64,000 nucleotides of DNA. Origin: Escherichia coli 042. Lineage in GTDB: Bacteria; Pseudomonadota; Gammaproteobacteria; Enterobacterales; Enterobacteriaceae. Below the pieces are notes generated by a model. The model was not told the origin of the DNA, ran no database searches, and saw only the letters and a program-made list of their open reading frames with translations. The stretch lies in the NCBI RefSeq assembly GCF_000027125.1, contig NC_017626.1, one strand, 5' to 3'. Each line of letters opens with the position of its first letter. Within the stretch, counting starts at the first letter, position 1. Below, one piece after another: positions 59,398 to 64,000 of the stretch. A program made the position numbers and the translations under genes.

Positions 59398-62300
59398 ATG
59401 AACAAAATTTTTAAAGTTATCTGGAATCCGGCAACAGGCAGTTACACCGTTGCCAGTGAAACGGCAAAAAGCCGTGGCAAGAAATCCGGGCGCAGTAAGC
59501 TGTTAATTTCTGCCCTGGTTGCTGGGGGAATGTTGTCGTCGTTTGGGGTACAGGCTCAGGCAGGAAGGGACAACGGTCAGGGCGTCAATTATGGCCAGGG
59601 AACAGGAACAGGCTGGGTTGCTATCGGTGAAGATGCAAAAGCAAATAGTTTTACAGACACCGGGGGTGGCTCCAGCACCGCAGTAGGTTATCACTCAACT
59701 GCTGACGGAAGGTGGTCAACAGCCCTCGGTGCTAAGACCCATTCGCTTGGCGAAGCATCAGTGGCGTTAGGGATTAACACTACCTCAGCAGGTGAGCGAA
59801 GCCTCGCTATAGGTGCATCGGCAACGTCAACGGGTGGATTTTCAATCGCACTTGGTCGTTATGCGAACTCAGTAGGTGAATTTTCTATTGCACAAGGGGA
59901 TCACGCAGAGACTGGTGCTGATGACGCCATCGCATTTGGACGTGAAAGCAAGGCCTTAGGAATTATGAGTATCGCCCTCGGAGCCACGGCTAATGCGTCG
60001 AAAGAATATGCAATGGCGCTGGGTGCAAGTAGCGCCGCATCTGCAGCTAACGCGATTGCAGTAGGCCGCAACAGTGCTGCAGCTGGCGTAGACAGCCTCG
60101 CATTCGGCAGACAATCCGCCGCCAGCGCCGCAAACGCGATTGCTATGGGTGCAGAGAGCAAAGCTGCTGAAAATGCGACGGCAGTTGGTACTAACGCGGA
60201 GGCAAATGGACTTAATAGTATCGCGTTGGGCTCCGGCAGTATTGCAGATGTCGACAACACGATTGCTCTGGGCAATCAAAGTCAGGCAGTAGCGGCTGGC
60301 GCAATTGCCATCGGTCAAGGGAATAAAGCTGACGGCGCAAATGCTATCGCGCTGGGTAATGGTAGTATTACAGGTGGTGTAAATGCTATTGCTCTTGGAC
60401 AAGGCAGTTATGCCGGTTTAGAAAATGGCACTGCAATTGGTGCTCAAGCCAGTGCTCAGGGGAAAAATTCAGTTGCTCTGGGTGCTGGTTCTGTAGCGAC
60501 TGACGCGGATACTGTTTCTGTGGGTAACACAACAGCTCAGCGACAAATTGTCAATATGGCAGCAGGTGATATCAGCACTACCAGTACTGATGCCATCAAT
60601 GGATCACAGCTTTATGCTATCAGTAAGTCAGTAGCGGACAATCTTGGTGGGGGGGCTACCGTCAATGCGCAAGGCGTCGTTACTTCCCCAAATTACAGGC
60701 TGAAAAGTGGTATTTTCGGCACTGTTGGCGACGCCTTAACGGGCCTGGACAATAATACGTTACAATGGGACTCCCTTAAAAAGGCATATAGTGCGGCACA
60801 TGGTACAGATACTACCAGTACCATCACCAACGTTAAAGACGGCGCTATTTCTGATACCAGTAAGGATGCGGTTAACGGTTCTCAGCTGAAAACCACCAAC
60901 GATAACGTAGCGACCAATACTGCCAATATCACCACCAACACTAACAGTATCAATACCCTGACGGATTCCGTTGGCGACCTTAAAGACGATGCCCTGCTGT
61001 GGAATGGCACCGCGTTCAGCGCCGCGCACGGCACCGAAGCCACCAGCAAAATCACCAACGTCAAAGACGGTGACCTGACGGCTGGCAGCACCGACGCGGT
61101 TAACGGCTCTCAGCTCAAAACCACTAACGATAATGTGGCAACCAACACCACCAACATCACCAACCTGACGGATTCCGTTGGCGACCTTAAAGACGATGCC
61201 CTGCTGTGGAATGGCACCGCGTTCAGCGCCGCGCACGGTACCGATGCCACCAGCAAAATCACCAACGTCAAAGACGGTGACCTGACGGCTGGTAGCACTG
61301 ACGCGGTAAACGGCTCTCAGCTGAAAACCACTAACGATGCCGTGGCAGCCAACACCACCAATATCGCCACGAATACCACCAACATCACCAACCTGACTGA
61401 CGCAGTTGACAGCCTCGGTGACGATTCCCTGCTGTGGAACGCTACAGCGGGGGCATTCAGCGCCGCACACGGTACTGATGCCACCAGCAAAATCACCAAC
61501 GTCACCGCTGGCGACCTGACGGCTGGCAGCACCGACGCGGTTAACGGCTCTCAGCTCAAAACCACTAACGATGCCGTGGCAGCCAACACCACCAATATCG
61601 CCACGAACACCACCAACATCACCAACCTGACTGACGCTGTTGACAGCCTCGGTGACGATTCCCTGCTGTGGAACGCTACTGCGGGGGCATTCAGCGCCGC
61701 GCACGGTACTGATGCCACCAGCAAAATCACTAACGTCAAAGACGGTGACCTGACGGCTGGCAGCACTGACGCGGTTAACGGCTCTCAGCTCAAAACCACT
61801 AACGATGCCGTGGCAGCCAACACCACCAATATCGCCACGAACACCACCAACATCACCAACCTGACTGACGCTGTTGACAGTCTCGGTGACGATTCCCTGC
61901 TGTGGAACGCTACGGCGGGTGCATTCAGTGCCAAACACGGCACCAACGGTACTGACAGCAAAATCACCAACTTACTGGCAGGCACTGTATCCTCTGATAG
62001 CACTGACGCTATTAATGGCTCACAACTTTATGGCTTAGCTGATTCATTTACGTCATACCTTGGCGGTGGTGCTGATATCAGCGATGCGGGTGTATTAACC
62101 GGGCCAACCTACACTATTGGTGGTACTGATTACAATAACGTCGGTGATGCTCTGGCTGCCATTAACACGTCATTTAGCACATCACTCGGTGACGCCCTAC
62201 TCTGGGATGCGACCGCCAAGGGCGGTGACGGTGCGTTTAGCGCCGGTCGCGGGACAGATAACACAGCCAGCATCATTACTAATGTTGCAGACGGTGCAAT

Positions 62301-64000
62301 TTCCTCTACCAGCAGCGACGCTATTAACGGCTCACAGCTCTATGACACCAGCAAGTACATTGCCGATACTCTGGGTGGTGACGCAGAAGTCAATGCTGAC
62401 GGCACAATCACCGCACCGACTTATGCCATCGCTGGCGGCAGTTACAGCAACGTCGGTGACGCGCTGGAAGCGATCGATACCACGCTGGATGACGCTCTGT
62501 TGTGGGATGCAACAGCCAATGATGGCAATGGTGCATTTAGCGCCGCTCACGGAAAAGATAAAACAGCCAGTGTAATCACTAACGTCGCTAACGGTGCAAT
62601 CTCTGCCACCAGCAGCGATGCCATTAACGGTTCACAACTGTATACCACCAACAAGTACATTGCCGATGCCCTGGGTGGTGACGCAGAAGTTAACGCTGAT
62701 GGTTCTATTACTGCGCCGACTTACACCATTGCAAATGCCGAGTACAACAACGTCGGTGACGCCCTGGATGCGCTCGACGATAACGCTCTGCTGTGGGATG
62801 CAACAGCCAATGACGGCGCAGGTGCCTACAACGCCAGCCATGACGGCAAGGCCAGCATCATCACAAATGTTGCTGATGGTAACATTGGCGAAGGCAGCAC
62901 TGACGCCATCAACGGTTCTCAGCTGTTTAACACCAATATGCTGATCCAGCAGAACAGCGAAATCATCAATCAGCTTGCCGGTAACACCAGCGAAACCTAC
63001 ATCGAAGATAACGGTGCGGGCATTAACTATGTACGTACCAACGACAACGGCTTAGCGTTCAACGATGCCAGCGCTTCAGGTATTGGCGCTACGGCTGTGG
63101 GTTATAACGCTGTCGCCTCAGGCGAAAGCAGCGTAGCCATTGGTCAAGGTAGCAGCAGCAACGTTGATACGGGTATCGCCCTGGGTAGCAGTTCCGTTTC
63201 CAGCCGTGTAATAGTTAAAGGTTCTCGTGACACCAGCGTGTCGGAAGAAGGTGTTGTGATTGGTTATGACACCACGGATGGCGAACTACTTGGTGCGTTG
63301 TCTATTGGTGATGACGGTAAATATCGTCAAATCATCAACGTAGCCGATGGTTCCGAAGCCCATGACGCCGTTACGGTTCGCCAGTTGCAAAATGCCATTG
63401 GTGCAGTCGCTACCACGCCGACCAAATACTTCCACGCCAACTCAACGGAAGAAGATTCACTGGCAGTAGGTGAAGACTCGCTAGCAATGGGCGCGAAAAC
63501 TATCGTTAATGGTAATGCGGGTATTGGTATCGGTTATGGTGCCTACGTGGACGCGAATGCACTTAATGGCATTGCTATCGGTAGCAACGCGCGTGCAAAC
63601 CATGCAAACAGCATTGCTATGGGTAATGGCTCACAGACGACTCGTGGTGCTCAAACTGGCTACGCCGCCTACAACATGGACGCACCGCAGAACTCTGTGG
63701 GTGAGTTCTCTGTCGGCAGTGAAGACGGTCAACGTCAGATCACCAACGTCGCGGCTGGTTCGGCTGATACCGATGCGGTTAACGTGGGTCAGTTGAAAGT
63801 AACGGACGCGCAGGTTTCCCAGAATACCCAGAGCATTACTAACCTGAACAATCAGGTCACTAATCTGGATACTCGCGTTACTAATATCGAAAACGGTATT
63901 GGCGACATTGTAACCACCGGTAGCACCAAGTACTTCAAGACCAACACCGATGGCGTAGATGCCAACGCGCAGGGTAAAGATAGTGTTGCGATTGGTTCTG
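59398..64000 (+). CDS. upaG: Trimeric autotransporter adhesin (UpaG/EhaG-like), N-terminal 1534 codons; runs off window end
   Basis: Frame stays open from ATG 59398 to base 64000 (translated the start through ~61140 and 61981-64000 by hand). Extended signal peptide [29 protein letters not shown]..., YadA-like head repeats (SIALG/NAIAVG/NSVALG), neck-like motifs ([48 protein letters not shown]), tandem stalk repeats. Missing from ORF track because no stop lies in the window. Confidence 0.85.
60760..61980 (+). repeat. In-frame tandem repeat array inside the adhesin gene (5 copies, periods 228/207/234/234 bp)
   Basis: Recurring unit ...[14 protein letters not shown](D/E)[31 protein letters not shown](A/N)VA(A/T)NTTNI...; motif gttaacggctctcagct at ~60871, 61099, 61306, 61540, 61774. 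Confidence 0.85.
61980..62940 (+). repeat. Second, more diverged in-frame repeat class in the adhesin gene (periods ~290-310 bp)
   Basis: Units built around AINGSQLY...LGG(D/G)A(E/D)V...TAPTY(T/A)I...Y(N/S)NVGDALDA...ALLWDATAN...; AINGSQL codons at ~62011, 62317, 62617, 62908. Confidence 0.75.

Follow-up and report, generated by a model that had tools for sequence, protein, structure and literature searches.

A probable sadBA-type operon with an UpaG/EhaG-like trimeric autotransporter adhesin gene of a third allele type in Escherichia coli

Introduction

The chromosomal trimeric autotransporter adhesin that is the subject of this study is named UpaG in uropathogenic Escherichia coli, EhaG in the enterohaemorrhagic pathotype of this species and, in Salmonella, SadA, and its locus is known as that of a vaccine-candidate adhesin with strong allelic mosaicism. 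YadA of Yersinia, the prototype trimeric autotransporter, differs from the adhesin described here in being plasmid-borne, in its length of about 450 aa, in its single head and single coiled-coil stalk, and in lacking a SadB-type helper. The sadBA operon sits between the mtl and lld operons and is deleted in K-12, and the helper lipoprotein SadB raises the display of SadA (PMC3953254). A review that tabulates SadA at 147 kDa also covers the functions of UpaG and EhaG and treats both as positional orthologues of SadA (PMC7247748). UpaG has a signal peptide comprising residues 1-53, is assembled via BAM and forms heat- and SDS-resistant trimers (PMC5670179); deletion of hns derepresses upaG, according to a review table that cites Totsika 2012 (PMC12525524).

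Here, we analysed a stretch of E. coli chromosome of 64,000 nucleotides (the window), for which a first-pass annotation had proposed an UpaG/EhaG-type trimeric adhesin, an interpretation that is supported by the evidence below. Positions 58671-64000 almost certainly represent an E. coli sadBA-type operon, in which a sadB-like gene is followed by the gene of a chromosomal trimeric autotransporter adhesin (type Vc); of its roughly 1743 codons, the window contains the first 1534. The adhesin gene is real but ordinary and is already known and annotated in hundreds of genomes.

Results and Discussion

The features to which the text refers are as follows; all are on the plus strand.

58111..58670, plus strand: AT-rich intergenic region between yibL and the sadB-like gene (GC 34-35% over 58200-58800, composition profile)
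58449..58478, plus strand: sigma-70 promoter-like site, TTGACA, 18 nt spacer, TAAAAT, 11/12 matches (consensus scan, pattern match only)
58671..59354, plus strand: sadB-like gene, 227-aa lipoprotein (PDB 4c47, "inner membrane lipoprotein", E 1.2e-70, residues 23-227)
59398..64000, plus strand: gene of the trimeric autotransporter adhesin (positional orthologue of upaG/ehaG), truncated by the end of the window after codon 1534 of ~1743
59398..59562, plus strand: extended signal peptide of the ESPR type, spanning residues 1-55 (Pfam PF13018 matched over residues 1-48, E 1.1e-15)
59665..60528, plus strand: N-terminal YadA-like head, ~15 head repeats, residues 90-377 (Pfam YadA_head)
60544..62997, plus strand: repetitive stalk, residues 383-1200 (ten Pfam YadA_stalk hits, E 2e-11 to 7.5e-7)
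60957..61940, plus strand: 2.0 copies of a 207-nt tandem DNA repeat (94% matches) and 3.4 copies of a 234-nt one (90%) (TRF)
62230..62777, plus strand: 1.8 copies of a 300-nt tandem DNA repeat (79%), coding for 100-aa DALL/FGG/neck units (TRF)
62998..64000, plus strand: conserved membrane-proximal passenger, residues 1201-1534 (alignment, PDB, Pfam on the EcPF15 orthologue)

The gene order in the window is mtlA-mtlD-mtlR-yibT-yibL, followed by the sadB-like lipoprotein gene and the adhesin gene. The first-pass annotation had equated the position after mtlR-yibL with the upaG/ehaG site; this site indeed carries upaG in CFT073 and ehaG in O157 Sakai, but the adhesin gene does not directly follow yibL, as the sadB-like gene intervenes. 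With regard to the other side, lldP follows the adhesin gene in EcPF15, GN02461, CFT073 and Sakai. Of a placement between the mtl operon/yibL and lldP, the window shows the upstream flank and the relatives supply the downstream one; K-12 has neither the sadB-like gene nor the adhesin gene. The arrangement resembles Salmonella enterica sadBA, where the helper lipoprotein gene likewise lies immediately upstream between the mtl and lld operons, at a distance of 44 bp as compared to 43 bp between the sadB-like gene and the adhesin ATG here. The sadB-like product carries a lipobox (LLAG/C) with Asp at +2, a residue that indicates inner-membrane retention, and PDB entry 4c47, which it matches, is presumably the SadB structure, in line with the molecule name. 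RefSeq names this product "DUF3251 domain-containing protein" or "SadB/YajI family lipoprotein", and NCBIfam returned nothing for it. A terminator-like site was not found between the two genes, which we infer to be likely members of one operon. The AT-rich region 58111-58670 probably contains the operon promoter and an H-NS-repressed control region, the role of H-NS being suggested by analogy; the promoter-like site at 58449-58478 is located approximately 190 nt 5' of the sadB-like start, and a search of 57000-64000 against Rfam gave no match.

The frame that opens with ATG 59398 on the plus strand runs to base 64000, the window end, over 1534 codons with 0 stops, as had been claimed from the sequence alone. 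Across the same 4.6 kb, the remaining five frames contain 35-136 stops each, with a longest open stretch of 403 codons; at such stop densities the chance odds of a 1534-codon open frame are roughly e^-35 to e^-136, and the frame is therefore no chance event. A purine-rich stretch, GGAATAGAGAG, is situated 9-19 nt 5' of the ATG, and the peptides reported previously, i.e., the signal-peptide start (residue 1), DAINGSQL (residues 398, 870, 974, 1074, and 1169) and DAVNVGQLK (residue 1459), are all present in the translation. When compared to the closest genome, the frame shows 23 of 33 substitutions at sense-frame third positions, with an amino acid altered in only 8 cases, which is the pattern expected for a translated frame. 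The statement that the adhesin had been missed by the ORF track proved correct insofar as the ORF is absent from the list; this is a window-edge effect rather than an annotation gap, however, since the list leaves out any ORF that continues past the end of the source, and RefSeq annotates the gene. In terms of annotation hygiene, a view of the window limited to complete ORFs would lose a 5.2-kb virulence-associated adhesin gene.

The ORF list does show a 392-aa minus-strand ORF at 60760-61938 and a series of minus-strand ORFs of 62-72 aa in the same region, and one could argue that these are the coding sequences and that the plus-strand frame is fortuitous. The products of these ORFs are, however, G/V/R-rich, low-complexity mirror images of the tandem repeats, and four of the ORFs start at a spacing of 207-234 nt, the period of the DNA repeats; by contrast, strong Pfam and PDB matches extend all along the sense frame, and the substitutions are biased to its third positions. 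We thus consider coding by the minus strand to have practically no probability and, for practical purposes, to be refuted already; the antisense ORFs in the repeats of this gene, which the first-pass annotation had likewise dismissed as artefacts, were rejected and should not be called.

The window part of the plus-strand adhesin gene, i.e., its first 88%, encodes the components of a type Vc protein from the N-terminus onwards, and domain annotation bore out the extended signal peptide, head repeats and neck motifs noted at first reading. The Sec signal peptide is of the ESPR type and is probably cleaved after VQAQA. The passenger consists of head repeats, necks and a coiled-coil stalk, with about 15 YadA_head and 10 YadA_stalk matches in residues 1-1200, further YadA repeats in residues 1101-1534 (Pfam on the 99.5%-identical EcPF15 orthologue), and at least 13 YadA_stalk/neck units overall. 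A PDB sequence search matched the head to those of BpaC, YadA (1p9h, E 4e-16), and UspA1; with YadA the adhesin shares YadA_head and neck/stalk domains as well as, in orthologues, YadA_anchor. The stalk comprises ten neck/stalk units, and within it the DALLW motif occurs seven times and the FGG-like LGGxA motif four times; its 207- and 234-nt DNA repeats code for units of 69 and 78 aa, and these tandem repeats at 60957-61940 are a source of repeat-number variation. The membrane-proximal passenger contains more head-repeat inserts, two KYF[HK]xN[ST] connectors, necks and coiled coil, and the window ends within one of its head repeats. Residues 1326-1534 matched PDB entry 2yo0 with an E of 6e-115, and 2yo3 and 2ynz were also matched; matching entries (e.g., 2yo3 and 2ynz) contain three chains each. 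We take 2yo0, 2yo3, and 2ynz to be fragments of Salmonella SadA, and other PDB fragments matched by the stalk are presumably from Acinetobacter Ata. The text of the SadB paper (PMC3953254) does not contain the 2yo*/2yn* codes or 4c47. Despite the similarity of its stalk to the present one, SadA differs in genus, in its shorter passenger and in repeat content. NCBIfam gave only sub-threshold matches to the adhesin (Ata, Vomp, EmaA, BimA, and YadA models), none of them at the curated cut-off.

As the anchor, stop codon and lldP fall outside the window, the intactness of this copy was judged from relatives. In the closest genome, EcPF15, which is 99.5% identical over 7 kb, the gene is annotated as a "YadA-like family protein" of 1743 aa, followed by lldP, and its product has a C-terminal YadA_anchor (PF03895, E 1.7e-19) with the last residues ...GAGIQW; hence the window cuts off about 209 codons that include the anchor, in agreement with the first-pass annotation, which had placed the anchor beyond the window. 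Past base 64000, the adhesin would be expected to end in ...NSQGEYSAALGAGIQW-stop. A frameshift, IS element or anchor deletion in the missing ~630 bp would make the present copy a pseudogene without a displayed adhesin, and it is true that the last 209 codons are out of view, that alleles at this locus are mosaic, that K-12 has lost the whole operon, and that the 3' end was matched in two pieces in genome H57. However, the 3' 630 bp of the gene were found in 4154 of 5426 complete E. coli genomes, all 4154 of which carry at least 80% of the region in one place, with an annotated CDS in every row among the matches listed; each of the 25 closest genomes has one uninterrupted adhesin CDS; and the visible 4.6 kb show the substitution pattern of a translated frame described above. 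We thus regard a broken copy as very improbable and an intact adhesin gene as the preferred reading.

If the adhesin behaves as other members of its family, from which the following steps are extrapolated, the polypeptide would be exported via Sec with its extended signal peptide, and a trimeric SadB-like lipoprotein may help to keep the three chains aligned with one another at the inner membrane. Their C-terminal anchor segments, encoded beyond the window, would then assemble, aided by BAM, into a single outer-membrane barrel of 12 strands, and the three passengers would thread this barrel and fold into a long trimeric fibre, made of necks and coiled coils, with the YadA-like head at its tip. 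Such a surface fibre could bind extracellular-matrix proteins and epithelial cells and mediate autoaggregation and biofilm formation; the literature on such phenotypes concerns the CFT073 and O157 alleles. Acting on the AT-rich region upstream, H-NS would probably silence expression.

The two characterised E. coli proteins used for comparison were UpaG of CFT073 (c4424, WP_001033292.1, 1778 aa), whose gene occupies the same site (yibL, sadB-like gene, adhesin, lldP), and EhaG of O157:H7 (ECs_4480 / Z5029, 1588 aa; annotated as "adhesin" in Sakai), a positional orthologue. UpaG shares with the present adhesin the ESPR, head, repetitive stalk and anchor, with an overall identity of 72%; the figure is 90-95% for residues 1201-1500 and 98-100% past residue 1500, the latter mostly judged on the EcPF15 orthologue. 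UpaG differs in total length (1778 aa as compared to ~1743 aa) and in having 15 neck motifs as compared to 14, counted on the full-length EcPF15 orthologue. EhaG is 75% identical over residues 551-1534 and 84-100% in the membrane-proximal part and anchor; it differs in that its head lies outside the BLASTP top segment, in having 12 necks and in being 155 aa shorter. For both proteins taken together, identity to the present adhesin is 85-98% over residues 1201-1534; the membrane-proximal part is 84-95% identical inside the window and 96-100% past its end (judged on EcPF15), and the conserved membrane-proximal stalk common to all alleles is thus present. The N-terminal head is the most divergent part of the adhesin, with 46-64% identity to UpaG, 52-68% to EhaG and several indels in the multiple alignment, and the stalk repeat units, a comparison that the first-pass annotation had called for, number 4 here, 5 in UpaG and 2 in EhaG.

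These data bear on the possibility that the gene is simply UpaG of the CFT073 type or EhaG of the O157 type, with the same ligand specificity. While locus, architecture and a nearly identical C-terminal third speak for such an assignment, the head and stalk repeats are those of neither type, and RefSeq naming rules give the present allele only the generic label "YadA-like family protein", with "UpaG" and "EhaG" going to other alleles; we therefore consider the assignment unlikely. The UpaG/EhaG-like label given initially accordingly holds for the locus, the architecture and the membrane-proximal part, but not for the head. Since the head is only ~50-65% identical to both characterised proteins, ligand specificity is not transferable to the present allele. 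Sequence comparison assigns the present allele to a third type, which is common and has a divergent head, another stalk repeat number and a near-invariant membrane-proximal part; the pattern fits recombination and the gain or loss of repeats, with diversifying pressure acting on the exposed tip. A tentative suggestion, which we think rather doubtful, is that the present head type marks a third allelic class that is also distinct in function, with a host ligand or tissue preference of its own, much as EhaG and UpaG differ from each other in binding to intestinal as opposed to bladder cells. The finding that the present allele falls outside both characterised types is of use for typing and for any antigen design, but raises no new question. 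The present head type occurs in 454 of the 5426 complete E. coli genomes (~8%). The first-pass description of a variable upaG/ehaG gene in pathogenic E. coli was right as to the locus, but the gene is not special to pathogens, given the prevalence of its 3' end reported above, the carriers of which include soil, water, and animal isolates.

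The adhesin gene and its domain architecture

The first-pass annotation proposed that a UpaG/EhaG-like trimeric autotransporter adhesin (TAA) gene opens at ATG 59398 and runs off the window end, and this interpretation is supported. Translation of 59398-64000 (+) yields 1534 codons with 0 stops, beginning with [21 protein letters not shown] and containing the motifs quoted in that annotation; the remaining five frames carry 35-136 stops each, with a longest open run of 403 codons, placing the adhesin frame far beyond chance. Its absence from the ORF list reflects the omission by the lister of ORFs that run off the source. 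The minus-strand ORFs listed instead had been dismissed as antisense artefacts, and they are indeed by-products of repeats: the 392-aa ORF at 60760-61938 was rejected as a gene, its product being a G/V/R-rich periodic sequence, and the starts of four shorter ORFs are spaced 207-234 nt apart, matching the periodicity of the tandem DNA repeats. Among the 33 substitutions relative to EcPF15, the E. coli genome closest to the window, 23 fall at third positions of the sense frame and only 8 change the amino acid.

A Pfam search of residues 1-1200 recovered the signal peptide, head and neck elements of the claimed TAA architecture:

Adhesin domains found by Pfam
residues 1-48: ESPR, extended signal peptide of type V secretion (E 1.1e-15)
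residues 90-377: about 15 YadA_head repeats
within residues 1-1200: ten YadA_stalk/neck units (E 2e-11 to 7.5e-7)

A PDB sequence search matched GCN4-adaptor fusion fragments (2yo0, 2yo3, 2ynz, 2yo2, 2yny; for 2yo0, E 6e-115 over residues 1326-1534) as well as other TAA pieces, namely the BpaC, YadA and UspA1 heads and Acinetobacter Ata. The fusion entries carry the molecule name "putative inner membrane protein" and are presumably the Salmonella SadA fragments of Hartmann et al. 2012.

Locus and missing 3' end

The segment 57000-64000 matches E. coli chromosomes (top match 99.5% identity across the full 7 kb) that are annotated with mtlR, yibT, yibL, a "DUF3251 / SadB/YajI family lipoprotein" and a "YadA-like family protein". 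The EcPF15 adhesin CDS (5232 bp, 1743 aa), followed by lldP-lldR-lldD, aligns to the window adhesin without gaps; the window thus carries 88% of the gene, with about 209 codons missing. In EcPF15 the corresponding segment holds more head and neck units and, as predicted for the part past the window, a YadA_anchor (PF03895, E 1.7e-19), ending in ...GAGIQW.

The equivalent position is occupied by upaG (1778 aa) in CFT073 and by ECs_4480 ("adhesin", 1588 aa) in O157 Sakai, which bears out the proposed upaG/ehaG site. We take ECs_4480 to be EhaG; in further O157 genomes RefSeq gives its counterpart the name ehaG. K-12 MG1655 lacks both genes, lipoprotein and adhesin, in the yibL-lldP interval, in agreement with the 5-kb K-12 deletion described previously (PMC3953254).

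The sadB-like partner gene and upstream region

While the adhesin gene had been correctly placed at the upaG/ehaG site after yibL, a gene not mentioned in the first-pass annotation intervenes:

58671-59354: sadB-like lipoprotein gene, 227 aa (PDB 4c47 "inner membrane lipoprotein", E 1.2e-70, residues 23-227)

In its product, the lipobox (LLAG|C) precedes an Asp at +2, the signal for inner-membrane retention. Grin et al. (PMC3953254) described Salmonella SadB as a trimeric inner-membrane lipoprotein that raises surface display of SadA, probably by keeping the three nascent chains in register; its gene precedes sadA by 44 bp, and the operon is shared by Escherichia, Shigella and Salmonella as a conserved unit. 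The gap in the window is 43 bp, compared to 44 bp in Salmonella sadBA, and no terminator-like site was found between the two genes; the sadB-like gene probably belongs to the same unit as the adhesin gene. The 560 bp upstream of the sadB-like gene are AT-rich (GC 34-35%) and include one strong promoter-like pattern match (58449-58478). A review table (PMC12525524) citing Totsika 2012 lists derepression of upaG upon hns deletion, and H-NS might act on this AT-rich stretch.

Allelic variation

By BLASTP, the window adhesin shows 72% identity to UpaG over its whole visible length and 75% to EhaG over residues 551-1534, with the head outside the main segment. A five-way alignment (window, EcPF15, GN02461, UpaG, EhaG) revealed a gradient of identity along the protein:

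Identity of the window adhesin to UpaG / EhaG
residues 1-100, signal peptide region: 77-81%
residues 101-400, head: 46-68%
residues 401-1200, repeats: 59-92%
residues 1201-1500, membrane-proximal part: 85-95%
beyond residue 1500 (mostly past the window, judged on EcPF15): 96-100%

The comparison of repeat number suggested in the first-pass annotation gave 4 [14 protein letters not shown] stalk units in the window allele versus 5 in UpaG and 2 in EhaG; neck-like motifs number 15 in UpaG, 12 in EhaG and 12 in the visible part of the window allele, whose full-length orthologue in EcPF15 has 14. These units are encoded by DNA tandem repeats of 207 nt (2 copies), 234 nt (3.4 copies) and 300 nt (1.8 copies). 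Differences from EcPF15 are concentrated (21/33) at 63438-63990, within 560 bp of the window end, a cluster that suggests, from sequence comparison, a recombination patch inside the gene. The GN02461 adhesin has a head identical to that of the window and differs elsewhere; recombinational mosaicism would produce such a pattern in the two genomes. The third head type, carried by the window allele, may have its own binding specificity.

Distribution and proposed function

Among 5426 complete E. coli genomes, the window head type (query 59560-60700, at least 80% coverage) was found in 454, 388 of them at 99% identity or more; the conserved 3' 630 bp was found in 4154, single-copy and chromosomal in every case, and the sadB-like gene in 1879 at megablast sensitivity. 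The window allele is thus common, and the gene is widespread rather than restricted to pathogens. Gene, locus, helper and variability have all been described already, and RefSeq includes annotated copies that are almost identical.

The functions of the window allele can be proposed by analogy with the family. The ESPR signal peptide found here would direct Sec export, and the SadB-like lipoprotein, by homology, could assist at the inner membrane (PMC3953254). Three anchors, known from orthologues, would form a 12-stranded barrel with the help of BAM (PMC5670179), through which three passengers would be exported before folding into a head-tipped fibre. Such a fibre may let the cells adhere to ECM proteins and to epithelial cells, autoaggregate and form biofilms (PMC7247748, PMC12525524).

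Other features of the window

About 3.9 kb (38917-42847) have no counterpart in EcPF15, which has hicAB at the site; they include:

39063-39803 (-): OmpV/MipA-like outer-membrane protein
39927-40901 (+): LysR-type regulator
40898-42034 (-): HlyD/EmrA-type periplasmic adaptor
42040-42393 (-): 117-aa ORF without family

A 431-aa Fic-family protein, encoded between aldB and yiaY (44554-45849, -) and matching the PADLOC SoFic defence model (E 2e-43), is present in CFT073 and absent from EcPF15. At ~24740 the window lacks the IS1397 copy found between avtA and ysaA in EcPF15, and an Rfam match to the ES036 sRNA (24680-24722, -) lies at this junction. Rfam also identified a cspA-type thermoregulator (5068-5495, +), at a gene that the EcPF15 annotation names cspE, and a sok antitoxin RNA (5778-5929, -) adjoining hokA. 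The mtlA-mtlD spacer (55281-55509) measures 229 bp in the window, as it does in K-12 and EcPF15; Sakai and GN02461 have 94 bp there and CFT073 has 419 bp, a variation likely due to variable REP-type elements.
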